DNA of 64,000 nt, from the IMG/VR virus record IMGVR_UViG_3300025154_001556, one strand, 5' to 3'. This DNA is from a virus (Duplodnaviria > Caudoviricetes). The position numbers were made by a program, and so were the translations under genes. The notes under the pieces were generated by a model. The model was not told the DNA's origin. It worked only from the letters and a program-made list of their open reading frames with translations, and searched no databases. How positions within the stretch are numbered: position 1 is the stretch's first letter; the number at the start of each line of letters is the position of its first letter. Shown here in pieces: positions 13,420 through 61,520 of the stretch.

Positions 13420-13427
13420 AAATTGCC

Positions 13428-16400
13428 TCAGTCATATTGGGTGGCTGTACCTTCTATAATTACAGGTGTTACATCAGTTCCTGATTTATAAACTGTTACT
13501 GCTTTTCCTGTATTATAGTATTGATCTGTATAGACTTGTGGTGTAGTTATATAGCCTATGGTGTTGTTATCTGTAAATGATACCGGTTTATTAATCATAC
13601 CATTACCGTACTGATCTTGAACAATGGCAGTTATTACGGAAACGCTTTTACCATCTGCCGGAAGTATTAACGGGTTTGCGCCTAGTGATATAAAATCTAC
13701 AAAAGGTCTTATAGGAGATGTTTGGTAATTGTATGTAGCCCAACTATTATCAACCCCATAATAGGTGGCTTCTAATTGTAATCTATACATAGTGTCCTTA
13801 TTTATAGCTAAGTCATAAATGGCTATATTAGTTACCTGATCAGCCCTTACGTTGTCCATATTCATAACACCAAATAGTTCTGTGGTTAACTCTCCCACGT
13901 AGCCTTTGCCAGATGTATATATTAAATCATCGAAATAAACAGCACTATTTATCATAGAAACAGCTTCCGCACCCAAAGCTAATGTAGCTTGGCTACCATA
14001 GTCAGTTGCAATATGTAATGAATTCCAAGTATCGTTGTATATGCCTGAGGTAGTAGTTTTATACTCAAAAGCCAAATTAGCACCATTTTTATTTATTTTT
14101 AATAAATAAGTAGGGTACGTAGTTAAACCAGAGTACAGATGCGTTTTTTCAATTAAGGTATCATTAGTTTTAATATAAGCATAAATATTTTCATAAGGTG
14201 CCTCAGAATAATCTACCACCTCATATGTTTTTATACTTATGTTATCCAACCCAGTACCAGCATCTCCTGTATACACGGCTTGCGATTGTAAATAAGCCTC
14301 TACTGGCAAATCTGCACCAGCAGCTGGACCTATGTAATCCCAATTAGTGGGCTCTAAACTACCATCTATCCATACCTTAAAATATATGAAATCGTCTGAA
14401 CGAGCTATACGTATATTATACCAATAACCGTAATATATATAATAATTATATTTATAACTGGTGTATATTGTGGTTACTACACCGCTAATAGATTTATTTA
14501 GACTAATGTAATTAGTACCTGTTAAATATGAATTAGTGTTCATATATACGTATAATTTATTATTAGCATCAAAGTAAATTGGGGATACTATGTATTGATC
14601 AGCATTAACTCCTCTACCGTGGTTCTTAAATTTAAAGAATACTTCCCACTTTGTACCGTAGTAAACAGTGTCATTAGTGATAGATGTAGCACCGTCTGTG
14701 ATGTGGTTCATGTACCCAGCGGTATACACAGTTGTAGGTATAGTGTCTGTCCACTGTGCGTTAGATAAAGAAAAATCGTCATTAAATACATTAGTAGTTG
14801 CATCAGTAGTAACTAAATTTGATATGTATACATTATCAAGACCTGTGCCATTTATTGATGTGTATTGTGCCCAAGAATAAAAACGGCTTTGGCTAGGCAA
14901 ATTTGAGGCCACAGTACTATCACTGATGTAATCCCAAATAACAGGCTCAGTAACACCTGCCATCCAAACCCTAAAATATATTTTACCATTAGTTACTAGC
15001 AATCTAACGTAAAACCAAGTACCATACAAATCATAATAATTATATTTTTGATCTTTATATAAGGAAGTACTACCGCCCCCTATTATTTTAATTAATTCCA
15101 CATTATATGTAGTAGAACTGTAATTATACATAATTACAGACAAACGATTATTAACGTCGATGTATAGTGGATTTACAATATAGGTTGAATCTCCTATTCC
15201 CCGCCCGGCATTTTTAAACATAAAAAGCACATTGTAATTAGTACCGTAGACTATTTCTTCTATGGTCCTAGTTAGTGCCCCATCAGTGGTTTGTTTAAGA
15301 TATCCTAAGGAATAGTCGGCGGTGCCAGTTACATTTTGCCAATTTACACCACCAGATAAAAAATTATCTTTAAATATGGTGTCTAAATAATTAATTTCCT
15401 GAACCACACCAAAATTATACGTATTATTAGATGAGCTATCTATTTCAACATAGTGCTCTAAATAACCAGGTGTTCCTGAAAAAGTGGTTAAACTTCCAAC
15501 AGTACCACTAACTTGAACTTCAAAATCACCCATTAAATAATAATTAGACTCAATAGAACTATGGCCATTAGCCGAGGTACTACAAGATAACATATTATTT
15601 AGTATTTCTGGGGAACCATTAGTAATAGACCATAAAGAGCTGTTTGGATCTGAATGGTCAACACCATTAAAATTATCATTAAAGCTGGACGCAGCTGTTA
15701 AATTAACGAGGTTAGACATATCCAATAATTTAGCATTGGTATTTTTAACATAGACCAGCGTATGTGCGTCAGGATGATCAGGAAGCACATTTTGAAGTCT
15801 ATAAAAGGTGGCTGCAGTTACGTCTTTATAGTCTAAATCAACTGCAGCAGATAAAAGATGGCCGGAATAAGAATCGAATCTAAATAAAGTGCCTTTTAGT
15901 GGGTCTACACCATCATAATTATTAAACACAAAAAAGCTATTACACAAACACACTAAATCGTCATTATTATATTTATACAGTGTACTGTCAGTTAATGTTA
16001 TTTGCCCGCCTATAACGGTGGCTACTTCCACTTCTTCACGCTGTTGGTAGCTATTTGGCCCAAGTATTAATTTAGTACCTACGGTTATTACACTATCATA
16101 ATATTCATTTATATATAAAACATTGGTGTGTGTGTTGGCTATTGATGTTATATATGTTTTATAATACTCTACTCCAAAAGCTTCCGCGGAATAAGTATAT
16201 ACAGTATTGCTTATATATTCAAAAGAATCTATCAATACACATATAAAATTTATAATTGCCCATTTTTTAAATAATAAACCACCTGATGGATGGTTTTGTA
16301 AAGACCACAAGTAATAACCGTCGTACTGTAAACTTTTAACTGCAGTACCTATTATAGTATCGGTGGGATACTCAAAAGCGGTAGAACCGTCGTCTACTTT

Positions 16401-16496
16401 ACATATTAAACTGTTTTTTATATAGTCTAAAAAATAGAAATAGCCATCTATTACTACAAAGTTAGCTTTTGATAACTTGATGTTTTCATATGCCAT
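13428..16496 (-). CDS. Tail appendage paralog 2 (1022 aa) with lectin-like beta-sandwich inserts and C-terminal Big_1-like domain
   Basis: Clear similarity to the 623-aa ORF (NFVVIDGYFY/NFTTLDGYFL; DDGSTAFEYPTDT/DDGNTAFSYPLDT); two tandem ~190-aa internal repeats; VQDQYGNGMINKPVSF. Confidence 0.7.
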   Translation of the reverse strand: MAYENIKLSKANFVVIDGYFYFLDYIKNSLICKVDDGSTAFEYPTDTIIGTAVKSLQYDGYYLWSLQNHPSGGLLFKKWAIINFICVLIDSFEYISNTVYTYSAEAFGVEYYKTYITSIANTHTNVLYINEYYDSVITVGTKLILGPNSYQQREEVEVATVIGGQITLTDSTLYKYNNDDLVCLCNSFFVFNNYDGVDPLKGTLFRFDSYSGHLLSAAVDLDYKDVTAATFYRLQNVLPDHPDAHTLVYVKNTNAKLLDMSNLVNLTAASSFNDNFNGVDHSDPNSSLWSITNGSPEILNNMLSCSTSANGHSSIESNYYLMGDFEVQVSGTVGSLTTFSGTPGYLEHYVEIDSSSNNTYNFGVVQEINYLDTIFKDNFLSGGVNWQNVTGTADYSLGYLKQTTDGALTRTIEEIVYGTNYNVLFMFKNAGRGIGDSTYIVNPLYIDVNNRLSVIMYNYSSTTYNVELIKIIGGGSTSLYKDQKYNYYDLYGTWFYVRLLVTNGKIYFRVWMAGVTEPVIWDYISDSTVASNLPSQSRFYSWAQYTSINGTGLDNVYISNLVTTDATTNVFNDDFSLSNAQWTDTIPTTVYTAGYMNHITDGATSITNDTVYYGTKWEVFFKFKNHGRGVNADQYIVSPIYFDANNKLYVYMNTNSYLTGTNYISLNKSISGVVTTIYTSYKYNYYIYYGYWYNIRIARSDDFIYFKVWIDGSLEPTNWDYIGPAAGADLPVEAYLQSQAVYTGDAGTGLDNISIKTYEVVDYSEAPYENIYAYIKTNDTLIEKTHLYSGLTTYPTYLLKINKNGANLAFEYKTTTSGIYNDTWNSLHIATDYGSQATLALGAEAVSMINSAVYFDDLIYTSGKGYVGELTTELFGVMNMDNVRADQVTNIAIYDLAINKDTMYRLQLEATYYGVDNSWATYNYQTSPIRPFVDFISLGANPLILPADGKSVSVITAIVQDQYGNGMINKPVSFTDNNTIGYITTPQVYTDQYYNTGKAVTVYKSGTDVTPVIIEGTATQYD

Positions 16497-16507
16497 TACA
16501 GGCCTCT

Positions 16508-18379
16508 TTAATTGGTCTGTTCAACAACAGCGGTTATAGTAACCTCACTGGCAACAACACCTGCTCTATATACTGTTTGGGCCATACCATCGGAGTCTGT
16601 ATTAATTTGTGTCCCTGCTGTTATAGCACCATCTCCGTTCTCAGAAAAAGTTACTCTTCTGCCGGCAATAGGTTGCAAAAACTGGTCCTTTACATAGGCG
16701 GTGATATCCGACGTACTTAGATTATTGGCGGCTATTATGGCCGGTGATGCGGACAACGATATAGAAGTTACGAACGAGGATAGTGGCGACAATTGGTAGT
16801 TATATCCAGACATACTACCACCACCGTCCTCTATATTTTGTAATCTATAAACATTATTATTATCTATTGCTAAATCATATACGGGGATAACTGTGATTTC
16901 ATCACTTTGTATGTTTTCCATAACCATAGACCCGTAAAAGGGTAAATTAGTCGCGGTTACATACCAAACAGATTCCCCTGTGTTGTAAACCAGGTCATCG
17001 AAAGCGGCTGTTACTGTACTACCTAATGTATTTTTTAAACCGAGCAAAAGTTTGCATTCGGTATCGAACATTTGTACGGTACCCATAAAACCCCAATCTT
17101 CTACCCCCTTTTTATAGTAGAAACTTACATTATCCGCAGCCCTACTAACTCTAAACATATAGTTATCAACTAAACCACCCCCACTATATGTGGCTGGGAC
17201 ACTGTAATCTATATTTTTAGTGGCTTTATATGATGTGACATTAAAATTATTTATACCAGATTGGGTGGCTGTTTCATTATTATTAGCCCTAGCTATATAA
17301 CAATATCTATTAGTTTCATTTGGAAACCATAAACCAAACATATGTGTAAAGTAGTTAGCGCCAGAATAAGTAGTATTATAGCTGTTTAAAGAACCCGTAA
17401 CAGTAACATCAAAATTACCTCTTAGATAATAATCAGAAATAATACTTTCTTGTCCTGAGGCAGTACTTGTGTATAATTGATTGCTTTGGATTGTTGGGGT
17501 ACCTAAAAGTACATCCCATTTATCTGTATCTGGGACAGAACCATTGGCTGCTGTAAAAGAGTCATTAGACTCAGTAGCATCGTATAACATAGCTAAATTT
17601 GAGGAAGTATTTACAAATAAAGTGTTTGTACCTTTAATATATGCTAATGTATCCACAGAGCCATAAGCAGAGAAAGCGCTTATCTTATGAAAAGTACATG
17701 CTGTAATATCTTTATATTGTCCGCCAGCGTATTTAGTTATATAAGCCCCTGTATGTGAGTCTAGCTTATACAAAGCCCCAGTACTGGTATCCACACCATT
17801 ACTGTTATTTAGTAACCATAGGTATTTATTAAATCCCACAGCATCATTTGAATCATAACCATACACTAGCGGAGTAGTTAAACTAACACCACCAAATATA
17901 GTACCAGATACTGTAACTAACTCATAATCATTATTAGAATTAGGGCCAATGTATAAAACACAACCGTTTATTATTTCTGGTGTATTAGAATATTCATTTA
18001 AATAAATTTCAGTAGATCCAGATGTTACAGAGGCTGTTAGCGTTGTATGATAATGTTCGACAGAAAAAGTATTGGCATTATAAGTATGACTGCCGTCATT
18101 TGTTAAAGTTATTGTTTGTTGCAGTTTACAAACATAATTATCTATTAGCCAACGCCTAATTATCCTACCATCTGCTTTTGATTCCAAAGTCCAAAAGTAC
18201 AGCCCATCGTATTCAGTGCTAAGTATAGTTTGTGTTAATACAGTGTCTAATGGATAAGAAAAAGCAGTATTACCATCATCAGTTTTTTGTAGCAATGCAT
18301 CTTGATCTTCATCAAATGTTAAAAAATAACCATCTAATGTGGTAAAATTAGGTTTTCTTAACTTAATATTATCTGCCAT
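16508..18379 (-). CDS. Tail appendage paralog 1 (623 aa) with lectin-like domain and C-terminal Big_1-like domain
   Basis: LSASPAIIAANNLSTSDITAYVKDQF...VTF...NTDSDGMAQTVY is invasin/Big_1-like; paralog of the next two genes. Confidence 0.7.
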   Translation of the reverse strand: MADNIKLRKPNFTTLDGYFLTFDEDQDALLQKTDDGNTAFSYPLDTVLTQTILSTEYDGLYFWTLESKADGRIIRRWLIDNYVCKLQQTITLTNDGSHTYNANTFSVEHYHTTLTASVTSGSTEIYLNEYSNTPEIINGCVLYIGPNSNNDYELVTVSGTIFGGVSLTTPLVYGYDSNDAVGFNKYLWLLNNSNGVDTSTGALYKLDSHTGAYITKYAGGQYKDITACTFHKISAFSAYGSVDTLAYIKGTNTLFVNTSSNLAMLYDATESNDSFTAANGSVPDTDKWDVLLGTPTIQSNQLYTSTASGQESIISDYYLRGNFDVTVTGSLNSYNTTYSGANYFTHMFGLWFPNETNRYCYIARANNNETATQSGINNFNVTSYKATKNIDYSVPATYSGGGLVDNYMFRVSRAADNVSFYYKKGVEDWGFMGTVQMFDTECKLLLGLKNTLGSTVTAAFDDLVYNTGESVWYVTATNLPFYGSMVMENIQSDEITVIPVYDLAIDNNNVYRLQNIEDGGGSMSGYNYQLSPLSSFVTSISLSASPAIIAANNLSTSDITAYVKDQFLQPIAGRRVTFSENGDGAITAGTQINTDSDGMAQTVYRAGVVASEVTITAVVEQTN

Positions 18380-35900: not shown

Positions 35901-38900
35901 GGCGGGATCATTTAATTTATTTAAATCCTCTATTTTGCTTTGTAAAACATCATAGGAAGCCGCCATATTTTTAATATTAGTAAGATTATCTTCTTGAATA
36001 CTACGCATACTATACATAGCATTTGCGTAATCTTGTGCAGATTGAGTCATCCTACCATATTGATCCCCTAGTACTTTTATTGCCGGTACTAATGCTGCTA
36101 TTGTGGTTAGTAATGGGGCAACCGCGGCTATAAAGGAAGTATCGTCCGTAGCTAAATTTTCAGTTAACTTTTTGCCTATATCACCGAGTGAATCACCAAA
36201 ACCTTTTACAGCCATACCTCCTAAATAGGAACCCATACCAGCTACTTCGGCGCCCATGGCCAAACCACCAGAAACTAATTTCTTTAGTGCTTGATGTATA
36301 CCCAGCTCTTTAACTGTTTTTTCTATGTCTTCTTTGGTCATACTATTACGTTTTCTAATAGTTTCAATAGTCTCCCCTATACCAGCGGTACTACTAAGTT
36401 TAGTCCCTACTGTTTTTCCGGCAGCCCCGAATGAGGCTATTCCTTTACCTGTGGTAGAAACACTATCAGCAACAAAACTATTAAATACTTTACCTACTTC
36501 TTGTAGTTTAAAGGACAACCTGCCAAAAGAGGAATGAAAATCTGATAATTTAGTCCCTCTGGTTACGTCAGTCTTTCCGCCACTAGCATCCGTAGTAGTA
36601 AATTTACCTAATGTTTTAAGACCGGCAGTGGCTAATTTACCGCCGCCTAAACCAAATAATTCATATTTAGTTTTAGCTAACTCTTTAGTAAATTGTTCTC
36701 CGGCCCCAGATATACCTAGAAAGTCCTTACCTCCAGCAAGCATGTCACCTAAGGATTCGGCTAGTTGCTGTCCCTTAGTCATATAGGTCAGTAAGGCCAC
36801 AAAAGCAGCGCCGGCCGCTTTGATAGGATCAGGTATAGCAGACAGTGTTTCTAAAAATGTTTTAACTCCACTTAAACCTATTTTAAATGCCGGCAAAGCT
36901 ACTTTACCGATAGACATCTGTAGTTCTACTAAAGCAACTTTGGTTTGTTCGAGCTGTTTTCTATAAGTACCCATTAATTCAGCATTACGTCTTTCTGCGG
37001 AGCCTTTGGAATTCATACTCTCTTTGGTGGCACGTAAAGCTTGATCCCAGTTATCCATTAAAGCTATGAGAGAGTTATATTGTCTGGTACCACCAAGTGC
37101 TTGGGAGGTAGCCAATTTTTGGGCGTTACTAAGGTCTTTCCATTTTTTGCTTAGATCATCTAAAACACTAAAACCAGATCTTAACTGTCCAGTAGATTCC
37201 ATGACAGGAATACCTAATTTACCCAGCTGCTCTGGCCCTTTTTCGGCAGAAAGTCTACGTAAAATAAATCTAAGAGAAGTACCTACTTCTTTACCTGATT
37301 GTCTTGTAGTTGAACCGATAGCGGCAACAATACCATTTAATTGATCAAAAGTAACACCAGCAATTTTGGCTGCCGAGGCGGACTTTTGAATAGCATTGGC
37401 TAAGTCACCAGCAGTAATAGCGCTCTTGGCTTCAACCTCACTCCAAGCATCTAAAAAGCGCATAGCACTATTACCTTCTTCTTGGTAAATTTTCATGGCT
37501 GATGTTAAAGCTTCAGTAGCTTCTGATGCTTTTAATGTAGTAACATTAGCAGCTAAGGTAGATACCTTAGTTCTATCTATTATTTCTGCTTGTGTTAAAC
37601 CTTGCTGTGCAAAAACATTCATAGATTGTAATACATCTGTTATACCAACACCATATTGTTTGGCGAAGGTAACCGCGGCCGCTGATAAACCATTTATATC
37701 AGAAGACAGAGGATTTAACATCATTTTAAGTGTGGCTAAACTATACTCTATTTCAGCTAAGGTACTAATAGCTTGTTTGAGTTGCGCAAAACCTCCGTAC
37801 ACTACGGTAGAAGCAGCACCCCATTTAACAGCACGCCCTATTGCACCTCTAAATCCGCTATTAGATCCTTGCATAGCGGAGGCTAAATCTCTTTCTTTTA
37901 TTGTTATGTCACTTAGTGATTTACCATACTTAGCAAAGTCCACCACAACATTACGAACAACCTGCCCAGTCTGATCCAGAACTTTGATAGGATAAGATCT
38001 AACCTCACCTACACGTGCACCACCAGATTCTTGAGGCTTCTCAAAATACTCTTTTACTTTTTCTACATTACTTGTGTGCATAGCCAGTTGCTCTTTCGGC
38101 GCTAACCATTTTGGAACTGGCACTGTGCCTGCCTCACCCCAGTCTTTATTGGCAGACTGGTTAATCATGGTGTATGAGTTCTCTACGGATTTTAAATACT
38201 TTATGACAGTCTCTAAATTCTTCTTTTGAGCTGCTCCAAAATCGTCCGTTAGATTATACTTCATGTAACGTTCAAGAGAAGCGCGGAGCCTACTTAATTT
38301 TTCAGCCAAAAGATCAAAATCCCAAGCATGCATAACATCAGAGCCCATCCTAGTTAGCATCTCGGCATTTTGCATCATGTCTATCATTTCTCTTTTAACA
38401 TTGGAACCAGTAATTGTAGATACAGCTGTACGTGCTTTTTCAACAGCAGGGGTCATCACACTGTCTTTTTGTAAATCACTTACTATATTTTCAAACATTG
38501 ATTGTAGTTGTTTATCATCACCTAATGGTGTTGTAGCCTTAGTAGCCAACTCACCTGGTGTTTGATAAACATTTAGTCTACGTGCCATTTCCGGCATTAC
38601 AAATTTTTTATCTTCTGTGTAAATGTCTGTTCTAGAACCAGCTACCCTACTAACAAACTTTCGCATTCTTGATATAGCGGATTGTGCCTTACCATAACTT
38701 GCGGTTTCCGCCTCAAAATCTTTTGAGGAGCTAGCCGCTTCGTAGGCCCTTTTTGCCTCCTTGGCTTGAGATAAGTAGTAATCTCCTTCCGCCATTCTAT
38801 ACAATTTCCAAGCTTTATTTAATTGCGCTCCTGCTCTACGTTCACCTTCAGGTCCACCTTGATCAGTGGCTAGCTGTTTAAATTTATCTGTTGCTTTTCT

Positions 38901-41900
38901 AAATCTATCCATATCTGGGCCAGTTTTACCTGTGCCTCTAATTATGTCGGATAAATCTTTACTTACTTTTTCGAGACTATTAAGCTCTTCTTCATAGTTG
39001 ATGTTACGAACTTGCCGTTGGAATTCTTTGGCGGCTGTATGGAATGTGGTGAAGTTCTCTAAATCGGCCCATACATCCTTACCAGCGGCTATTTTAGGGC
39101 TATATAATTTGTCTATATCACTAATTGAATCGGTTTCGTCAAGTTTAAAACCCTTAATTTTCTCTTCACTCTCTTTAGGTGTCATCGGTCTGTAAGAAGC
39201 AGCCCTTTGTCTACCGCCGCCAGCAGTTTTAACAGATTCAAAATGTTTTGAAGATTCATCTAACATTCTCTTTAAATCAGAAGCACTTATATTTAAAGGA
39301 CTAGCCTTCTTTGCGGCCTCCGTTTGTTCCTCTAAACTACCTGTGGTTCTAAATTTACCAGCAAACCTTCTAGCTTTAGCTACGGCATCCACATCTTTAG
39401 CTAATAAGGCTGGGTCTTGTTTAAATTTCACAACTTCAGGGGTATCTTCACCCTTACCCGTGCTACTATAATACTTAGCCTCGCCTTTAGTTGCACCAAT
39501 GGCTGTCATATAAACATTTAACTGTGATGCCACATCCAGTAATTTATATGCGGCCGCTAGACTGGGTTTGTCCCCTTTCTCAATGAGTTTGGCGTAAACT
39601 TCTGGGAAATCAGATGTACCGGAAGTTTGTATGGCTTCTCCAATAGCTTTTTTAACCCCCTCACCTACTGTCTTTATATCCATAGGATATTTTTCACCAG
39701 TAGTTTCATCTTTCATTACAACATCTATATGCCCGGTTATAGGGCCAGACTTTGTGGTTAAAGCCACAAATTGTTCTATGGCAGCTGTGGGGTCCATAGA
39801 TATTATATCTTTTTGTATTTTAGCATGTATGGCTTGACCAACAAGAGCAGAGGCTTCTAAGAAGTCATTAGGAATGTTGTCACTTTCTCCACGCATTGCT
39901 GACACTATGGCAGCTATCTGACGACTATTTAATTCTTTTTCAGAGAAGTCTTCTTTTTTAAACCCACTCTTATAGGAACCGCCGCCGGCTAAAGCACTGG
40001 CTCTATATATTGTTGCATATGTTGCACCGCTAAGCTCATTGTGGCCACCTGTTATTTGGGCAGACCATTTTTTAAGCTGTTCTACATCGATAGCAGGCTC
40101 AGTAGTTGTCTGAGTTTTAGCTTGTGGGGTGTCTCCTACAAATAAACCTATACCAGCAGCAATGCTTTGTAGATGAACATTTAAAGCACCGCCAGTAAAA
40201 GTAAATGGTCCCCCTGGAACACCAGCACCCGGTGTTGTTATACCAGGGGTAGCCGGGGGCGGGGGCCCTCCTGCAGACCCGTAAATACCGGCTTCCATTA
40301 TAGGAGAAGATACTTTAGCCGCCTCTATACCTGCGGTGGAACGATATGTTGTTCCCCTAACTTTACCTGAGGAGACAGGGGGTAACATAGTAGCCACATC
40401 CATACCAGAGGCACTAGAAGTTTTAAATACTTTTAAAGCTCTATCTAGTGAATATAAGGCCTTCATTTTTTCTGAAAATACGTCTACATATGCATCTACT
40501 TTGGTTTGTAGTTCTTCGGGAGTTAAGCCTTGATCTTTAAATTTAGTTTCAGCCATCTTACTAAGTTCGCTTTTACCTAGTAGCTCTATTTCTTGTAGCA
40601 CTGACGGCTCTACTACTGGCAGCCCCGCTAGTGTAGTATAATAGTCTACAACATCACGCATACGCATTAAATCTTTAGCTGAGGATCTATCTTTAAATAC
40701 TTGCGTATGTATTGGAGACATTGTGGCTAAGTCACCCGTGGTTAATTCAGTAAGCTTACCAATACTATCTTGTATTGATTTAATATCCAGAGGTTCGTAA
40801 TTAGCAATAGCTGCAGTTACAGCTTGCACGTCTTTCTGTGAATTTTTTAATCTATCGGCAGAAGTCTTTACCAATTCACCGTAAGCACCAGAACCAGATA
40901 CCTCATATAACTGATTAAGCTCATCTTCCAAATTAGATGCGGTAGCTACTGCCTTTGCCATACTAGACGAGTATCTAGCTTCTTCTTTTTTACCATAAGC
41001 ACCTGGCTGTAATTTAGATATACCCACATCTAAATCTAACGCGCCTTTACCATGCTTACTGATATAAGCACCCATTTGGCTTTCTGTACTAGCGCCGGCG
41101 GTTCTAAATTTATATAATGGTGCTTCTTTACTAGTTATTAGGCTTGAAGCTACCGCAGATGGACTTGATTCTTTTAATCTTCTGGCATATTCTTCTTTGG
41201 CTGCCGCTTTAAGGGTGTCAGGAGACATTCCTTGGCCCTTATTAGCGGCTATTTGTTTCTGTAATGTATCCAGAGCCGAATTTATAATAGACTGCTCTAA
41301 ACGCGTTAGAAAGCCTCTAAAACCCATCTTGTCTACCATCTCAGCAGTAAATTTATCTATATCAGATAAGTCAGCAGTTACACCATAAGCGGTTGCCATA
41401 CTTTTAACATCATCCGCCATCCCTTTGGACAACATGCTATGTATTCTATCTGTTATAGCTTGAGCATCTGCCTTAACAAAATCTTTAAGATCTTCGTAGT
41501 CTTTATTATTTAAAATGTTTTTATATACTTTTTCTCCGCCACCAGGTTCCATTATATCTCTGGTTATATCCGAGGACACAGAAGCGGCGCCGGCATGTTT
41601 AACGTCCATACCTTTCTGTAAGCTAAATCGGGTTAGCTCATTCATTCTAGCTTGTTCGTCCCTAGAGAATTTCTGATCGCCCTTAGCACCTATTAAGCTG
41701 GATTCCCCAGATACATCTTTATTGTAAGAAAGACTTAAGCGTGTAAAAGCCTCTGTTTCAGGGCCTGTATGAATTTTAAATAACTGCGCGGCCACAGCTG
41801 ACTTAGTTCTCTCATTTGCCAAAGAGGCACCTGTTTGAAATTTAAATGATTTTTTAAATTTATCATCTAAGGTCTCTATTACTGCCGCAACTTTATCTGC

Positions 41901-44900
41901 GTTATTTTTTAATTCGTCCGCATTACTAAGATCTTTTATGTTAGTCACAGCCGCTTCTAACTTGTCAGCATCTGTTTTATCGAGTAAGTTGCTTATTTGT
42001 TCAAGTACTTTATTTAAATCCTTGGAATCTCCGGCTAAAGCCTGCATCTGTTCGGATAAAGATAAGAAACCCATATCTTCCGTAGCAAAAGGTTTCTGCA
42101 TAAAACTGAAACCTTTTTCTGTTGGAAATTTTTTAGCAAAAGACTCTCCCATCTCTGCTAAGGTATATTCCGATGCTGGGGGCTGCACCGCGCCATAAGT
42201 AAACTGATCTCTAAATACTGATGCTGTATCAGATAAATCCTGAGTTAAGGTATCATAATGTTTTTTAATATCCCCTCTGGCTTTAACATTAATAGCAGAG
42301 TGAATTTCTATGGCGTCACCGTCAAAATCTAGTTTTTGTTGATGTGCTATATACTTAGGTAATAAATTGGATATAGCGGCATTAAGCTTATCAATTAAAT
42401 CTGTTAATTTTTCTAGCTTCTCTGGTGAGGCTGCGGCGCCTTTACTTAACTCACCGGCACGTTTGGTGGATAGATCTTCCCGCTGTTTAGTCATTCTTTG
42501 AATAACGCCAGATAAAGCATCCATCGGTAGATTGGGCATACCAGGAACAGCCAATACATTACTAGCCATACCTCCTTTACCTTCATCTAGTAGTCTAGCT
42601 TTATAGGGCTGTATTGAAGATGTACCTGTAAAAGGATAACGAAGGCTCTCTATATAAGGAGCTAGCTCTTCTTCTATGTATTTTTTTATAGTGGCTTTTT
42701 CTTCCGCTGTGCTCCCTTTACCCTGCAGATCTTGGGTGTAACGCAGCATGTCTAATAGAGTACCTTCTACCTTAGTAGCTGGAGCAGCCTCGCCTTCTTT
42801 TGTAAATTTCTTGGTGAAGGACACAGGTATCTTTCTGGCTATTTCCGCAGGGACACCGATCTCATGCTGACCCAATACTGGAAGACCTAACTCACTTGTA
42901 CGTTTTAGACGCTTGCTATGTTTTTCTTTTATAGATTGTGTTTGTTCCTGCAGTGATTTTAAAGATTTAATACTTTTTTCTGATATCCCCATCTCTTGTT
43001 GCATTTCTGGTGATAGGCCCTCTAGATCACCTATGATGGCGGACATCTGTGTATCAAATGTTTCTAGATCTTTTGTCTTATCAACAGTAGCAGAAACAGC
43101 CTTAGCCATGACAGCTGGTATTTTTCTAGTAAATAAAGTTTCTGCAACAGAACCACTTTTACCTAAGGTAGTTTCAGCCAAAGTCTCTAAATAATTTATT
43201 TTAGCTTTTTGGACAGCAGCAAGTTTATTATTCATCTCTTGTTCTAACATGCCCTTACCGCCAGAAAAATCTTTACTAATGGTATTTAGTTGCTCAAGTA
43301 AGTTACCTTTTGGATCTACTTTAAATGGTACTTTACCTTCGCTCAATTGTCCTGAAACTGTGGCGCCGGCATGTCTAAGAGCTTTAAGTATGGCGTTGTA
43401 TCTTTTTTCGGCATAGTTAGCTTGGGATTGAACAACACCTTCCATAGAACTAGCGTAGGACTTATCCATAGATGCGGACAAATCATCGTTTATATTCTTT
43501 TTAAATGTTATCCACATTTGTTCTAATTCTTTTACATATTTAGGATCATAGGTGGATAGCCTGCCCCCTTTCACTCTTATGTCACTAGTGGTGGACAACA
43601 CAGAAGATTTAAGCATTCCCGCAGCAGCTTCTTTCATAACTGCTTCCGCTGTTTTACGTGAATCTACATTTTTAGCCATATAGTACTGTTCAGTGTTGGT
43701 TACAAAATCTTGGTAGTCCTTAGCGGAGTTTATTAAGTTTTGTAATACACGTGTAGGCTCTTCGGGACCAAATTCCCCGGCTACTAAGGGCTCAGGATAA
43801 ACACCGCGGCCAGCAGGGGACGGGACATAGAAGTCCTCAAACGCTGTGGGCTTTTGACCAAGTTTGGCTTTAGAAGCATCAGATGATGGTAATTGTAGCA
43901 TAAAGGGCTTGTTGAATTTCTCAACATCCATAACAGTTCCCAACATACTACGCTTACCTTTATCCAGTGTTCCTGTAGAATAGTCAAAAGATTTTAATTC
44001 ATCTACCGATACTTTTTCTAACTTATTTCTTAAAGCTCCTAAAACCTCAGAGTCTTTATTAGTATTGGCTATTAGGGTCTTTATGTATTCCCAATGTTTT
44101 TTATCGGTATCACTTAGCTGTTCTACAAGTTCTGCTTGACTACCAGCACCCTGAATTGGTGTCTGGTTTATTTCCTTCATCAATTCCGAATCTTTACCAA
44201 AAACATTTAGATAGGCTGTATAAGCTGGGACATTAAGCTTTGCACCTTTTATACGTTTACGCACATCAGTGGTAGACCATGCCTCGGTAGCGGTAGGCTC
44301 CTCCACTACCTGTAAGAATTTTTGACCGACAAGACTCTTACGTTTTTCTCCAAACTCGTCTATAATTTCTGTATAAAAATTAGACATCTCCTCAAGAGCG
44401 GCGCCACGTTTTGCCATTACAGCTGCTTGATCAGACTTCTTACCACGTTGCATAAAGATTTTTGTTAAAGCTTCCTCTGCCTTTCCTGGGTCGGTACCCT
44501 TAAAACCCAAAGCGGAACTGTATGTAGATAAGGATTCTTTACCACTACCGAGTAATTTTTTATACATATCGGGGGCGAACTTATCCCGTAACGTTGTGTA
44601 GGCCTCATCTTTTTCTGATGCTTTTTGGACATTAGCAACGTTATTAAGTATGGTCTCTAATACCTCTGTCTGTAAACCACGTTTACCAGCACCTAAGGAA
44701 CTTATTCTAACATCAATTGGTTTTAGTTCATACAAACCACCTTCTTTAATCATACTACTATATGTTTGTTTCAGGTTATTTATACCATCAACACCATCGG
44801 TTATGGCTATACCAATTGAACTAAATAGCTCCTTGGCTTTATTATAGATATCTTGTTGGACAGAAGCCTCTTCTGGAATAGTTAAACCTGATGTAGCATC

Positions 44901-47900
44901 TTTAAAATACTCTATCATAAACTTATTACCAGAGTTTATGAGTTGTGATTTTAGCCCTTCTACTTCTGATTGAGAAGCACCTGCTGCTGTAAGCCCTTCT
45001 ATTTGACTATCTAACAATTCAGCTGCTAACTGCCCCATACTTTTAGGCATTTTGGCAGTACCTAAACCAGCGTTTACCTGCTCTTCACTAGTAAGTACTT
45101 TTATGTTTTTATCACCCCAAGTTTTAAGAATGTCTGACATTTTAGATGTGTCAGTAGAGGTCATAGACACACCCTTCGATCCAAAACGTGTGGTAAACTT
45201 TCTACCAAAGTGATTCATAAAAACTTCGGCAACTTTCGCTGCTTGCACTTCTACATTCTCAGAACGTACTGTTGCCATGGCTTTTTGTACTTCTGTAATA
45301 AAAGCTTTGTCTGCGCGTCCTTTATAGGTATTACTAACTCCTAACATATCCTGAAACTGGCTATATACTTTATTAATAGCCTCAGGAGAATCTACATCTT
45401 TTAACACCCCAGGCTTAACATCTGATACCGCCTCTGTGCCTTTACCCGAACTTAACTCTTTTCCCAGCATCCTACCGCCGGCTGCGGGTAAAACTAATGT
45501 TTTTGTTAAAGAGGTAACAGCATCAGCAAGTTTACCAGATACAAGTATTTGATCTTCAAACGTGCCGGCAGTGTGGCGTAATTCAGCAGTGACGTTAAAA
45601 CCATAACCTTTCTCACCGTAACGGCCACCTTCGATTAAAGATTTTTCACGCTCTGTTCTTAATGTTGGTGTTGTAGTACCAATCCCTTTTACACGGGCTA
45701 CATCAAATTTATCTGTAAGGCCGTTTATTTCATCAATAGAAGAGGACATAGCGTTAGTAACACCCGCTATATTACGTCCTAATTGTTGAAATTCACCAAA
45801 AGGGGCCATGCTTGTTAAGTCATCAACAAACATCTTTATATTAGTTCCACCAAGTGCTTTTAAGTAAGATAGCCCTTCTTCGTAATCTTTATTATCCTCG
45901 TCGGCTCCTCTTACTTTATTAGATTTAAGGTAAGCTATGGAACTAGCCTGAGACTCGGGTATACCTAAGGAGGATAGTTTTCTTCCTTGTGTAGGCAGTT
46001 CTTGTAACCGTTTAACAATAGGACCAGATTCCGGAGATTCTGCCGCCAATTTAGCGAGCATGTCCCTTTCAGCGTACATTTCCTTAAAACGTAGGTTTAA
46101 ATCTTTAATATAATTTTTATGTTCTTCAGGTTTTAATTCATAATCCCTTTCAGTAGGATATAAACCTGGTGTACCTCTGGAAAGAAGATTAACCACATTA
46201 GATTGCTGTAAACCACGACGTGGTTTACCGGGCTCTATTAGCGGCATCAGTTGTTCTACTTGTTTTGTAGCTGATTCAAAGCCCCTGGCACCACTCTGGT
46301 ATGCTGGTTTTTCTACCAACTTTTTTAGCGGGTCTGCTAAGACCTTACCATAGATATCATATATGTTTTTAAATTCTACTTTATCTAAGGCCTTTGCAAA
46401 ATCATATGCTGACACTTGTGCGGTGTTCATCATATTAACAAAAGACATGATCTGCGTTTTAAGATCTTTGTTGGGGTCAAGGGTAAACTGATCTATCTGA
46501 TTAGTAATGTTGGTTAATGCAGGTAATATGTCTAAATCAGGATCTATACGTTTTTTCTGCACCATTTTGGAAACAGTGGCTGCTTTGTACCCTTCTTTGA
46601 TGCCGGAGAATTCTTTAATAACACGTGCATATTCAGTTGATGCAGGTGCACCCTGTTTAAAAGTGCTTATATCAGCTAGCAATTTAGTTACTAAATCTGA
46701 TACAGCATTTTGTTCTAAGCGTGTTTGGGGATTAACACCAATAGTTTGTATTTTAGAAGCATAGTCTTCTTCGCGGCTTAATGTGCCGGCCTGTAGTGCC
46801 TTACTGTACAGCTTTTCCAGCCCTGTTTCAAACATTGCAAATTTAGATAAAGCACGTTCTGAGCCATGAGCGGTTTCCAAAATAGGGGTACCGGAAGGAG
46901 TCATCCTAGCCGCAGGTAGTGCCACATTACGGATATAAGGGGCTGGATGTTCTTTTCTTGTAGTGTCCACATCAGATAAACTTCTGTTGACCTCAGCTAC
47001 CGCGTATGTTTGTCTAGTAAGTTGTGTTAGTGGCCCTAATTGACTACCAACAGCTTTTTTTACACCTTCAACTAAATTAACAGTGCCTTTGGATGTTTCA
47101 TAAGCCGTTTTAAGATCAAGAAGTGCTTTTTTAATTTCAGGATCTGCCACGGTTGTCCAACCAGCTATATTTTCTTTCGACGCGGACTTCATCCACGTAG
47201 CTACTTTACTAGCCAGTAACTCCGCATTTTCATCAGCACTACCGCCATGAGTTACATTTGCCATTAACTTATCTAACTGCAGCTCTTTAAAGGCAGAAAC
47301 TATTTGATTTGGATCACCCGTAGCAGTTCTTTTGTTTTTTGTAAGTTCTCTTTGCATAGATTTTACATCCGCTATCTGCATGGTCCACATTTTAGCGTTT
47401 GTTTGATTTAAGCTATTACTTACATTTGTAAAATATTTGCTACTTTCAGGAGCTCCGGGCATTTCTAAAGGCTTCCAATCAGATTTACCTAATTGCTCAG
47501 TAACCGTGTTAGTAATATCTTTTAGTAATGCATTTAATGAGCTGGAAAGCTGTCTCTCCATAGCATGGACGTCGAGGGAAGCTCTGGAAGCGGAGATACC
47601 TTTAAGAATACCTTGCACAGAATCAGCCATCTGATCTTTTGCGGTAGCTACTTTATCGAACTCCTGTTTTATATTATCAGCACTATAACCACCTACTGCT
47701 GGTTTTATTACTTTAGATCCATAAACAGCTTTTTGTTCTGATGTACTACCGATCGCTTTAATTCTGCTAATATTTGCTGCCGGTGTGGTAGGAGCTTTGG
47801 CGCCGACATTAGTAGCAACTTTTGTAGTTGGTGCAGCCAACACAGTGTGTTTAGTACTATCAGCTAATTTAGTTAAAGACGCAGCTACTTCGGCTACATT

Positions 47901-49766
47901 ACGCTCTAAGGCTTCAAACTTGCTACTTAAATCTTCTGTTTTTATAGCCCTAACCTTAGTTACTAAATTATCAGCAATTTGAGATCCGGCCTTGGCTTGA
48001 CTTACCATTGAGGCCTCAGTTGTATTTTGTAGCTCATCAATCAAAGATCGCAGGGCGGCAATCTCACTGGATGCTTTTTTTACTTCTGGGCTATTAAAAG
48101 AACTCGTCCTTAAGGTCTTATTTATAGATTCAGTTTTAACACTTAAAGATTCTGTAAGAACCCCTTTTAATGATTCTAAATTCTTTTTTAAAGTAGATAT
48201 AGCTTGTTTATAATTATTAAAATAGCCACTTAAAGCTTTGGCAGCCTCGTCGGCGTTTAAATCAAGCAGCACGTCTAATTTAACGTTATCTGGAAATTTA
48301 GAAGTTATTAAACGTTCAATGTTTTCTAACTTAGGGGCTATTACTATCTCAGCAGCACCTGATGAAATTTCCTTAATTACAGAATTAAGTTCTTTTTTAA
48401 CATCCGCAGTGTCTATTGTAACATCTAGGGTGGCGGCTTTATCTATAATATCAAGTAGTGTAGTTATTTCCTTAAGTTTTTTATTAAGTGTTGTAGCTAC
48501 ACCTATCTTAATATCTCTATCTTTTACTAGAGTATCTATGTCTTTTTCAGCTAATTTAGTATCGGCAGAAACTTGGACAGTTACTTTACTGTTAGAAGCA
48601 TTTATTATAGAATCAATTGTTTTTCTAAATGCTTTATCATCAACATCTACTGATAGTACCAACTTTTCAGAAAGTTTATTGAGTCTAGTAATTATTTCTT
48701 TATCATTAAGGGCTACATCTATTTGTTGCTTAGACTTTTTAGTAGCTGTTTCTAGATATTTTATGTTGCTGGTAGATCCACCAGATTTTAAAAGTTTAGG
48801 TAAGTCTTCTAGTGCTTTACTTACAGCACGTAACTCAGAAAGTGTACTAACTAAAACTTTATCTGTTTGTTTAGAAGGCTCTTTACTAATTATACTTGTT
48901 TTCTTTGCAGCGGATAAAGTAACCAAACCTTTTTCTACTGATTTAGATATGGCTGAGGCCAACGCATACGTATCGATACCGCTAGCAGCAGAAGAGCGTT
49001 GTTTTGTAGTTTCTTCTTTTACGGCTTTTTTTATTTGATCTAGTTCTTTTATAATGTCAGAACTAGCAGCTGGTGAAGCCTCTACTGCTTTGGATAATTT
49101 TGTTAGTCCGGAAGTAAGTTGTTTAATCTCTGAATATAATTTTGATAGTCCAGCACTTACTTCTTTTACATTTGATGTATCTTTGGTTGTTGTAACAGTA
49201 GTTTTGTAGGAATTATCTACGCTCTTGGCTAACCCTTCTATGGCTGTTTGTAACTTAGTTAATTTACCAAAGTCAGTTGATGCAGGATCTTTTTTAATGG
49301 CAGTAAGGATAGAGGTATTGAGATCTTTTATACTTTTGTCTATGGCAGTTTTATCTGATTTACCTGATATGGCGCCTAATACTTTTGTTAGCGCACCTAA
49401 TTCTTTTGTTATAATTGATTCTAATGCCTTAGTATCTAATGTAGTTGTAGGTTTACCCGAAGACGTGGTTCCGCCTGCAGTGATACTTCGTTGAAATTCT
49501 TTGGCTATTGTTTTGGAAATATTATCTGCAAGGATCTTTGCTTGCTGGGCAGTATCTTTTGTAGCAGTGCTTGACTGAGCTTTACCATACGCATCATTTA
49601 GCCCATCCTTTATTGCTTTTTTAACAGAAGACGCTAATCTATCGGTTAACCCATTAAATGCTTTTGCTAATGTGCTATCTAAGGTAGAAGCTATATTGTC
49701 GGCCTTATTGCTTCCTGAACTTGATCCACTTATTATATGAGATACTGTGATGTCGTGCTTAGCCAA
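26910..49766 (-). CDS. Giant tape measure polyprotein (7618 aa) containing two-barrel RNA polymerase, PD-(D/E)XK nuclease and TP901-type TMP core
   Basis: Uninterrupted 22.9-kb ORF with TTG start and GGAGG RBS; canonical position after tail tube and chaperone genes; domain motifs listed as separate features. Confidence 0.92.
   Translation of the reverse strand: [7618 protein letters not shown]
28639..28845. repeat. Perfect in-frame 96-bp tandem duplication (about 2.2 copies) in the TMP gene
   Basis: ccgccgtcagccagg recurs at 28639, 28735 and 28831; unit encodes [32 protein letters not shown]; 50 of 96 bases are G/C. Confidence 0.95.
36900..37870 (-). other. TP901-family (PhageMin_Tail-like) tape-measure core, about aa 3970-4290
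   Basis: [23 protein letters not shown]...[11 protein letters not shown]...[23 protein letters not shown]...[15 protein letters not shown]...[18 protein letters not shown]; hydrophobic segments follow. Confidence 0.9.
39450..40010 (-). other. PD-(D/E)XK nuclease domain (RecB/PDDEXK_1-like) within the TMP, about aa 3250-3440
   Basis: YRASAL, GQAIH3314, E3331, GHID3348, D3363-I-K3365-T, Q3415-LNV-Y3419, in the expected order. Confidence 0.8.
41550..45800 (-). other. Two-barrel (double-psi) RNA polymerase region within the TMP, beta-like then beta'-like, about aa 1320-2740
   Basis: FE1404D1405; GRK1523FTTRFGSK1531GV; [23 protein letters not shown]; R2376YP; D2480FDGD2484 at 42315-42329; Q2717KGM2720DVKH2724. 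Confidence 0.88.
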
Positions 49767-49773
49767 AGCGGTG

Positions 49774-49778
49774 CCTCC
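49774..49778 (-). promoter_or_regulatory. Shine-Dalgarno site of the TMP gene
   Basis: TAGGAGG-CACCGCT-TTG, 7-nt spacing. Confidence 0.75.
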
Positions 49779-49845
49779 TAGATGATGTTGCTTTAATCAA
49801 TTAAACATTCTTTTATTCTTAATAATAGAATGGTTACCTTATTAC

Positions 49846-57014: not shown

Positions 57015-57758
57015 TTAATCCTCCAAATAACTACATTTATAATTCTTATGTTGGTTTCTGTTACCCTTGGCGCATGACACCATATGGGCCGGGTTAAGTT
57101 TATGCTCCCTACAAAAAGACGCTAAACAGTCTATAAGTATAATTTCGCCTGTAGGTGTCTCTATACTGTATTTCTTGGCATTTGGATTTAAAGCCCCAAT
57201 AAATCTACCTTTTAATGTAGTAGCTATTTTACTTTTAGTTTCATTATGTCTTGGTTTACCATAATTAGGGTTGTTAGCCCCAACATACATCCCAGAGTTC
57301 TTCCTTGTTTCTGACATCTTTCTTTTGGCGGACTCTGTATGTTTTCTGCCTTTTTTAGACGCACTAATCTTTTGTCTGGCTTCTTCTGATAGAATGTTAC
57401 CGTAAGCGGGATGATCGGAGCCTTTTAATCCGTACATTGCATTTAACTCGCCTACAGCCCCTATACTATTAGTTCCACCTTCAGTCATATTGTACCCTTT
57501 GTTAAAACTATTATACTCATTTATATAGTATATTTCCTTTTCATTCAGCGCTTCTTTATTATAAGCACTATCTAACTTAGACCAAATAAAATTGGCCGGG
57601 CCGTGTTTTAATAAAGCTTGATACAGTTTATACGATTTACGTTTCATGGCATTTAAATGTTGTGTTTTACGTCTTGCCAAAGTATGCGTAGTTTGACCTA
57701 TATATACTTTACCATTAATTACATTAGTTACTTTATATATTATACCGTAAATATTCAT
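57015..57758 (-). CDS. Free-standing GIY-YIG homing endonuclease with NUMOD3-like repeats
   Basis: GIIYKVTNVINGKVYIGQT...R...H...E...GYN; repeats LSEEARQKISAS, HTESAKRKMSET, HNETKSKIATT. Confidence 0.93.
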   Translation of the reverse strand: MNIYGIIYKVTNVINGKVYIGQTTHTLARRKTQHLNAMKRKSYKLYQALLKHGPANFIWSKLDSAYNKEALNEKEIYYINEYNSFNKGYNMTEGGTNSIGAVGELNAMYGLKGSDHPAYGNILSEEARQKISASKKGRKHTESAKRKMSETRKNSGMYVGANNPNYGKPRHNETKSKIATTLKGRFIGALNPNAKKYSIETPTGEIILIDCLASFCREHKLNPAHMVSCAKGNRNQHKNYKCSYLED

Positions 57759-60944: not shown

Positions 60945-61520
60945 TTAGTCCTTTTTCCAAACCACTTCAAATATAGATTCTAATAAGTCATCTGGTAATA
61001 TAAGTTTATCGATTGGTTTACTTGAGTATTTTGGATGCTCATAACATGTGTCAATAAATTCTGTGCATGACATCTCTTTTTCATCATTAAAATTAAATTC
61101 ATAATCATACCCTATATCTTTATATAGACAGTTAAATGCGTTTTTAATTGCGGTTACTGCTTTATTATTGTCAGGACAACGTAATATACATATGTCGTCA
61201 CAGCGTAAAAAAGTTAATATATCTTCCTTGTTTATGCCTTGCCCCAACATGTGGATAACATAGCCATCTCCAACATACAGGGCCGCGTGAGACCAGTATC
61301 CTGGAATTAAGATACTACCTAAGTAGTGATCATACCTTCTTAAAAGAACATCTCCTGGTTCAAGTACATTTAATACATAACGTGTATCTGGTCCTTTTAT
61401 ACTGTAAGAAGAATTACCAAAAAGTACAAACCCTCCTGCATATACACGTATATCAGAAAACCAAGCAATCAATGTGTTTTTAATTTTGTAAAAAATAGTT
61501 GAAAGTGTCATACTTATCAC
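60945..61520 (-). CDS. Permuted papain-like NlpC/P60 enzyme (YiiX/YebB-like)
   Basis: LEPGDVLL, YWSHAALYVG (His), YDYEF...EMSCTEF (Cys); His precedes Cys as in circularly permuted members. Confidence 0.85.
   Translation of the reverse strand: MISMTLSTIFYKIKNTLIAWFSDIRVYAGGFVLFGNSSYSIKGPDTRYVLNVLEPGDVLLRRYDHYLGSILIPGYWSHAALYVGDGYVIHMLGQGINKEDILTFLRCDDICILRCPDNNKAVTAIKNAFNCLYKDIGYDYEFNFNDEKEMSCTEFIDTCYEHPKYSSKPIDKLILPDDLLESIFEVVWKKD

Follow-up and report, generated by a model that had tools for sequence, protein, structure and literature searches.

The subject of this analysis is P0001, a giant open reading frame (ORF) in a 64,000-nt stretch of DNA (the window) from the Caudoviricetes virus record IMGVR_UViG_3300025154_001556 of IMG/VR. 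It is a single ORF of 7,618 amino acids (aa) on the minus strand, at positions 26910-49766, and encodes a phage tail tape measure protein (TMP). Our data indicate that P0001 probably carries a complete single-chain two-barrel DNA-dependent RNA polymerase (RNAP) ahead of the tape measure core, and that this enzyme would be delivered with the virion for early transcription, as judged by analogy with the Thermus phage P23-45. An earlier note on this DNA had proposed a two-barrel RNAP inside the TMP, and this proposal is now supported by invariant residues, by a tally of Pfam matches, by two structural models and by homology to a stand-alone paralogue. The precedent that it cited, a virion RNAP fused to the roughly 5000-aa tail tape protein of P23-45, is correct (PMC10770324).

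P0001 scores 97 bits on PhageMin_Tail (PF10145), for which the cut-off is 33, and aa ~3950-7600 match eight TMP PHROGs, the best of them being PHROG_4211 (E 2e-80). The ORF, its tape measure core and the polymerase module are located in the window as follows:

26910-49766 (-): giant ORF P0001; in order, an N-terminal extension, the RNAP module, a nuclease-like domain, the tape measure core and a tail
37089-37679 (-): PhageMin_Tail (PF10145) tape measure core, aa 4030-4226, E 1.5e-27; the best-conserved part of P0001
41049-46292 (-): single-chain two-barrel RNAP module, aa ~1160-2906, based on hhalign, on VIA-align to beta and beta-prime, and on conservation

All eight RNAP motifs cited in the earlier note were found in P0001 in the order given there, within positions 42300-45602 of the window (aa 1389-1410, 1521-1533, 1683-1704, 1840-1857, 2201-2216, 2299-2310, 2374-2388 and 2478-2489). 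Their pairing with the motifs of cellular RNAP agrees with the ranges of the structural alignment. For the fourth beta motif, in the region of aa 1840-1857, the pairing with GGQRFGEMEVWALEAYG had been doubtful; it is now backed by the alignment of the TMP module with a stand-alone RNAP from relatives of this phage (described below). The note had placed the polymerase at 41550-45800. RNAP sequence is indeed present there, but the module is wider at both ends, and its start was moved to aa ~1160 because aa 1159-1411 also align with the stand-alone RNAP. Within the module we distinguish:

44172-46292 (-): beta-like half, aa ~1160-1865, containing double-psi barrel B
45750-45806 (-): motif APFGEFQQLGRNIAGVTNA, aa 1321-1339, a ninth beta motif that was absent from the list of the earlier note
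45549-45560 (-): FEDQ, aa 1403-1406, counterpart of NFEDS in beta, with E1404 and D1405 invariant (60/60); aligns with WEDQ of the stand-alone RNAP
45168-45206 (-): lysine motif, aa 1521-1533, pattern G.K.....G.KGV; K1523 and K1531 are the two active-site lysines of barrel B
44655-44720 (-): PIDVRISSLGAGKRGLQTEVLE, aa 1683-1704, counterpart of the beta motif RMNIGQILE, with R1696, G1697 and E1704 invariant
41049-44171 (-): beta-prime-like half, aa ~1866-2906, comprising the N-terminal, clamp-containing match to beta-prime, barrel A and a downstream helical region
43257-43694 (-): variable helical insert, aa ~2025-2170, which separates conserved blocks; long helices with a predicted local distance difference test (pLDDT) score of 59-75
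42624-42641 (-): RYPFTG, aa 2376-2381, counterpart of NRAPTLH in beta-prime, with R2376, P2378 and G2381 invariant
42315-42329 (-): DFDGD, aa 2480-2484, the metal-binding loop of barrel A
41589-41777 (-): KIHTGPETE (aa 2664-2672) and NE..R...Q.G...K..G (aa 2709-2726), invariant; candidate bridge-helix and trigger-loop region

Invariance was determined in an alignment of 60 family members with 25-66% identity to P0001. In the beta-like half, E1404, D1405, G1521, K1523, G1529, K1531, G1532 and V1533 are the same in all 60, as are R1696, G1697, E1704, G1841 and G1857. The same alignment shows no variation at R2376, P2378, G2381, D2480, D2482, G2483 and D2484 of the beta-prime-like half. Barrel B has its two conserved lysines 8 residues apart, and barrel A has its DxDxD metal-binding loop. 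In the ninth beta motif (core PF..F....R) all 20 members compared keep P1322, F1326, R1331 and A1339, and 19 of them keep F1323; hhalign aligned it with VPFGNQFHNPARN of the stand-alone RNAP, and its counterpart in E. coli beta is PFLEHDDANRALMGANM. Further motifs have partners in the stand-alone RNAP. The stretch aa 1683-1704 aligns with KIDVIV..KKRKNY.QI.EA, which HMMER itself aligned to the beta motif; VERFPCLG stands at a place collinear with RYPFTG; and a K..TGP and a KHG motif are collinear with aa 2664-2672 and aa 2709-2726. The stretch aa 2664-2726 also falls inside the part of the model that was aligned to beta-prime up to residue 1341, and it may hold the bridge helix and the trigger loop.

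AlphaFold2 was run with the family alignment and gave two usable models, one of aa 1375-2570 (pLDDT 77.8, predicted TM score (pTM) 0.67) and one of aa 2150-2950 (pLDDT 78.1, pTM 0.69). In the top lists of Foldseek nearly every entry was an RNAP largest subunit (probability up to 1.00), and no match of either model had an E-value below 1e-3. VIA-align placed the two models on beta and beta-prime of RNAP, and the residues that came to lie together were those expected. The beta-like half showed about 20% identity to beta over ~170 aligned residues, and residues 529-1154 of model 1 could be aligned with beta-prime/Rpb1, starting at about residue 20 in its N-terminal part and taking in parts of the clamp. 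An exhaustive structure search with the beta-prime-like half, independent of Foldseek, was headed by the largest subunits of Pol I, Pol II, archaeal RNAP, vaccinia, Pol IV, Mycobacterium, African swine fever virus (ASFV) and Pol III. A designed double-psi barrel fitted aa 2217-2491 with a root mean square deviation of 2.2 A over 86 of 86 residues, ending at DFDGD. A structural comparison with RpoB and RpoC, as suggested in the earlier note, was in favour of its proposal, the AlphaFold models matching beta and beta-prime. Both halves have the RNAP fold.

At the sequence level, RNA_pol_Rpb1_2 (PF00623) matched 32 of the 47 members of the beta-prime-like alignment (best E 5.6e-5), while the next family matched 6. 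Searches of PDB sequences by phmmer and by profile hmmsearch returned noise, with Rpc1 and Rpb1 on the DFDGD stretch at E 2-4, and tblastn of the window protein against 50,697 GenBank phages gave no matches. Family profiles compared by hhalign with single E. coli RpoB and RpoC sequences gave non-significant results; the best RpoB match was the lysine motif (1063-1075, E 0.07-0.1). The RpoC segment that scored highest, beta-prime 25-64, had a probability of 6% and was rejected as noise.

A link to recognised polymerases came from five long relatives that were searched with the PF00623 profile. In the near-complete relatives G003, G004 and G005 (completeness 100%, 87% and 86%, respectively) two matches each were obtained, one in the giant TMP ORF and one in a free-standing ORF of 1,085-1,178 aa. 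The free-standing ORFs are:

L071:2712-6020 (-): stand-alone RNAP of G003, PF00623 match
L072:1335-4592 (+): stand-alone RNAP of G005, PF00623 match
L073:1001-4537 (+): stand-alone RNAP of G004, PF00623 match

These proteins match PF00562 and then PF00623, in this order and near or above the cut-offs, and their matches among PDB sequences are RNAPs throughout (33/33). They bear the full motif set in the same order as the TMP module. Three mutually collinear hhalign matches connect the two: TMP aa ~1677-2018 with residues 402-682 of the stand-alone RNAP (probability 94%, E 1.4e-7), TMP aa 1159-1411 with residues 139-293 (probability 92%, E 6e-7), and the DFDGD region (E 1e-3). Because the TMP module is homologous to this stand-alone phage RNAP, it is tied by sequence to recognised RNAP families. 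Judged from these alignments, the stand-alone RNAP is a detectable paralogue of the embedded module, and it is presumably the non-virion enzyme. Two collinear homologous blocks and the DFDGD region are common to both, whereas the stand-alone protein is free-standing, ~650 aa shorter, and matches PF00562 as well as PF00623. The ORF adjoining it in G003 (L071:105-1295, minus strand) has the look of an RtcB-type RNA ligase, as read by eye from the translation.

The fusion occurs in a large protein family. An exhaustive HMMER search with aa 1360-2540 against 1.84 billion cluster representatives found 110 clusters (at 50% identity), about 60 of which consist of proteins 6,400-8,000 aa long that carry the region at an equivalent relative position. 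These ~60 clusters keep the arrangement, RNAP and TMP being joined in one polypeptide in which the TMP core lies C-terminal to the RNAP. From a second search came 50 giant homologues, whose contigs reach 325 kb, and 44 loci are present in IMG/VR. The gene neighbouring the TMP is indexed in 115 blocks of the searched collection. PF10145 is almost always the sole precomputed Pfam domain of the giant homologues, and named records read "TP901 family phage tail tape measure protein", just as the earlier note had expected of a gene caller. Groundwater metagenomes (PRJNA292723 and related) contain near-identical phages. Since P0086, P0109 and P0076 keep DFDGD, the family of TMPs with an RNAP reaches well beyond the core group of 7,000-8,000 aa. 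These three proteins (5,013, 2,236 and 6,409 aa) have 25-30% identity and their DFDGD at aa 1528, 1597 and 2145, respectively; by BLASTP they showed no resemblance to gp96, the TMP of P23-45. The paper on the "moraphage" lineage of jumbo phages (PMC12619734) proved unrelated.

Conservation along the protein was calculated as mean column identity by region among 20 full-length members:

aa 1-1100, N-terminal region: 10-19% over most of its length, 31% at aa 901-1000
aa 1100-2000, RNAP: 26-46%
aa 2001-2200, insert: 15-18%
aa 2200-2900, RNAP: 24-42%
aa 4000-4300, TMP core: 56-68%

After the TMP core, the RNAP blocks rank next in conservation. The insert at aa ~2025-2170 also interrupts the phmmer matches in most relatives.

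The remaining features of P0001 are:

49774-49779 (-): Shine-Dalgarno sequence AGGAGG, 7 nt 5' of the TTG start codon at 49766-49764, as read from the sequence
46467-49766 (-): aa 1-1100, the N-terminal region; conservation is poor and no domain was recognised
39327-40169 (-): PD-(D/E)XK (Cas4-like) nuclease-like domain, aa ~3200-3480, which follows the polymerase and precedes the TMP core
36078-36134 (-): hydrophobic segment, aa 4545-4563, with a Kyte-Doolittle mean of 2.23 over 19 residues; candidate membrane segment
28653-28844 (-): aa 6975-7038, where 32 aa are duplicated exactly and in tandem, within the variable C-terminal part

The start of P0001 agrees with that chosen by gene callers in other assemblies, where it lies 80 nt past the upstream gene; apart from the TTG start, the first 100 codons include no further ATG, GTG or TTG. 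In aa 1-1100 the Pfam scan gave a weak ATG17-like match, which we took to be of the coiled-coil type. The nuclease-like domain matches PHROG_1706 (E 1.3e-7 at aa 3304-3369), and its displayed ESM Atlas neighbours are PD-(D/E)XK, Cas4 or YqaJ nuclease clusters with scores of 0.93-0.95; no Pfam, NCBIfam or PDB sequence matches were obtained. It may be a second enzyme that is delivered with the TMP. In other assemblies, the TMPs of near-identical phages measure 7,586, 7,682, 7,715 and 7,722 aa, compared with 7,618 aa here. As near-identical phages carry TMPs of differing length, the length of this protein is polymorphic.

In P23-45 the virion RNAP occupies aa 327-1124 of gp96, a TMP of 5,002 aa, with DFDGD at aa 779-783 (PMC10770324). 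gp96 is also found in P74-26, G20c and TSP4 (Oshimavirus), with PDB entries 8H2N and 8H2M (Chaban et al. 2024, PMC10770324). Its polymerase transcribes the pre-early genes, among them the gene of the paralogous non-virion RNAP gp64, and it is clamp-less and flat, a shape that the authors think is needed for passage through the tail channel (PMC10770324). By analogy, the TMP of the present phage together with its polymerase would be assembled into the virion and enter the host on ejection, either before the DNA or together with it. The ejected polymerase would then transcribe the genes that enter first, independently of the host RNAP, and the stand-alone paralogue, a product of the first transcripts, would take over later. 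Several observations weigh against this picture. The size of the module and the match of its model to part of the beta-prime clamp contrast with the clamp-less and flat enzyme of gp96; passage through the tail would here need unfolding, or else another location in the virion. The beta-like half escapes Pfam, PF00562 matching 1 of the 60 members, and the sequence of P0001 itself matches no RNAP model of Pfam, PHROG or NCBIfam over aa 1200-2950. In G001, the closest relative contig, whose RNAP region is 96% identical to that of P0001, a second RNAP was not found by a DxDxD scan in ORFs of at least 500 aa, a search with profile A1 and a fuzzy search for motif strings, which returned the TMP only; by collinearity the second RNAP would lie ~26 kb past the end of this contig, which is 89% complete. 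A PF00562 search of G001 and G002 gave no matches.

TMPs of other phages are known to be proteolytically processed, for example gpH of lambda. An active RNAP might likewise be cleaved from the TMP precursor, or be made from the same gene, and work in the producing cell, or it might serve tail assembly and then be discarded. The apparent retention of part of the clamp in a module about twice the size of the flat polymerase of gp96, proposed to be shaped for passing the tail, would fit such a role, and so would the poorly conserved Gly/Pro-rich linker (aa ~3100-3200) that follows C-terminal to the module. We nevertheless consider non-delivery unlikely: the clade already owns a stand-alone RNAP that can work inside the cell, ~60 diverged clusters have all retained the fusion in one frame with the TMP core, and the sole TMP-fused RNAP studied so far is a virion enzyme (PMC10770324). 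An RNAP-derived domain that has ceased to polymerise and acts as a DNA-binding or threading part of the ejection machinery, or as a structural plug, appears improbable, since the DFDGD triad, K1523/K1531, E1404/D1405 and R1696, residues that dead enzymes normally lose, are invariant across 25-66% identity, as are the downstream motifs common to the stand-alone paralogue; the divergence of the beta-like half beyond the reach of Pfam and the low confidence of the model at aa ~1415-1560, around barrel B, are what speaks for it. We give equally little credence to a two-barrel polymerase of another specificity, be it a QDE-1-like RNA-dependent RNAP, a primase-like starter of replication or a PolD-like DNA polymerase. 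Short motifs can mislead, and the window protein alone yields no significant database match for RNAP. A chance resemblance of motifs, or a giant ORF that results from assembly or gene calling, is still extremely improbable, given that the same ORF architecture is seen in independent JGI, ENA, Logan and NCBI assemblies and that motif invariance, the tally of Pfam matches, both fold models and the homology to the paralogue concur.

TMP-fused RNAP is present also in a large phage lineage that is unrelated in sequence to P23-45, and the literature searched contains no report of such a fusion besides the work on P23-45. An origin of the fusion independent of gp96 is plausible. It is quite possible, although we would stop short of calling it likely, that a widespread environmental clade of jumbo phages, including those of groundwater, acquired the fusion without any connection to the Thermus phages, beginning with a duplicate of the beta/beta-prime fusion RNAP that the clade itself encodes, and that the N-terminal ~3,900 residues of these TMPs of 7,000-8,000 aa are a multi-enzyme ejection cargo of polymerase and PD-(D/E)XK nuclease. 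On this reading the coupling of transcription to DNA entry would be a general phage strategy, beyond an oddity of thermophiles. The arrangement, described in 2024 for one small group of Thermus phages, would be common among jumbo phages that are uncultured (at least 110 clusters, 44 IMG/VR contigs, contigs up to 325 kb), in which public annotation of TMP-RNAP fusions stops at "tape measure protein". The polymerase described here is larger and closer to cellular beta/beta-prime than that of gp96, and it poses an ejection puzzle, as an enzyme of ~1,750 residues, apparently with part of the clamp, would have to be stored in the tail and pass through it. Together with the stand-alone RNAP it would provide a second, independent pair of virion and non-virion RNAP paralogues for the study of the evolution of two-barrel polymerases.

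The genes around the TMP are all co-oriented with it and, in whichever library was scanned, have no PHROG and/or Pfam match apart from those listed here:

2837-8215 (-): ORF of 1,792 aa, no Pfam matches
10813-18379 (-): three consecutive ORFs of 868, 1,022 and 623 aa, downstream of the TMP, each with a Big_1/invasin-type immunoglobulin-like domain
57015-57758 (-): GIY-YIG/HNH-type homing endonuclease ORF (PHROG_314, E 3e-43), amid otherwise unannotatable genes upstream of the TMP
60945-61520 (-): Peptidase_C92 ORF (permuted papain-like amidase, YaeF/YiiX), E 5e-13

The three ORFs with Big_1/invasin-type domains are likely to encode tail fibre or receptor-binding proteins.

Among known systems, beta and beta-prime of cellular RNAP and their viral derivatives (the non-virion RNAPs of phiKZ and AR9, vaccinia, ASFV) are the best structural matches of both halves. 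P0001 and cellular RNAP have collinear catalytic motifs in common, namely PF..R, FED, G.K.....G.KGV, R..G..LE, R.P..G and DFDGD. The spacing between FED and the lysine motif is 116 residues in P0001; in E. coli beta it is longer, about 250 residues. Unlike the cellular enzyme with its two or more subunits, the polymerase of P0001 is one chain without evident alpha or omega partners and lies inside a structural protein.

Virion-packaged polymerases for early genes that are ejected with the DNA are also represented by the virion RNAP of N4 and by gp66 of phi14:2, but these are separate capsid or ejection proteins outside the TMP. The N4 enzyme is T7-like and not two-barrel. gp66 of phi14:2, a crAss-like phage, is, like the module described here, a single-chain two-barrel RNAP (PMC10770324). 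None of gp66 (6VR4), gp96 and gp64 ranked among the best 50 in either exhaustive structure search; cellular-type subunits led both lists.

With gp96, sequence homology was detected neither in the RNAP nor in the TMP part by BLASTP (E 0.22; best E 0.021 with full-length proteins), and hhalign of the P0001 RNAP against gp96 gave a non-significant match to a non-catalytic stretch (E 0.04); tblastn likewise gave no match, and the relatives of gp96 among GenBank phages are Thermus phages only. The polymerase of gp96 has ~800 aa, that of P0001 ~1,750 aa and starts after ~1,160 aa. Whereas the former is clamp-less and flat, the model of the latter matches the clamp-containing N-terminal part of beta-prime. 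A nuclease-like domain is present in P0001 where gp96 has a metallopeptidase, and mesophilic groundwater jumbo phages of ~230-325 kb stand against Thermus phages of 84 kb. The resemblance between P0001 and gp96 is one of architecture, not of detectable homology: in each, a two-barrel RNAP with a DFDGD motif lies ahead of the TMP core in the same giant polypeptide, with barrel B (beta-like) preceding barrel A (beta-prime-like), and in each phage lineage there is a second, stand-alone paralogous RNAP.

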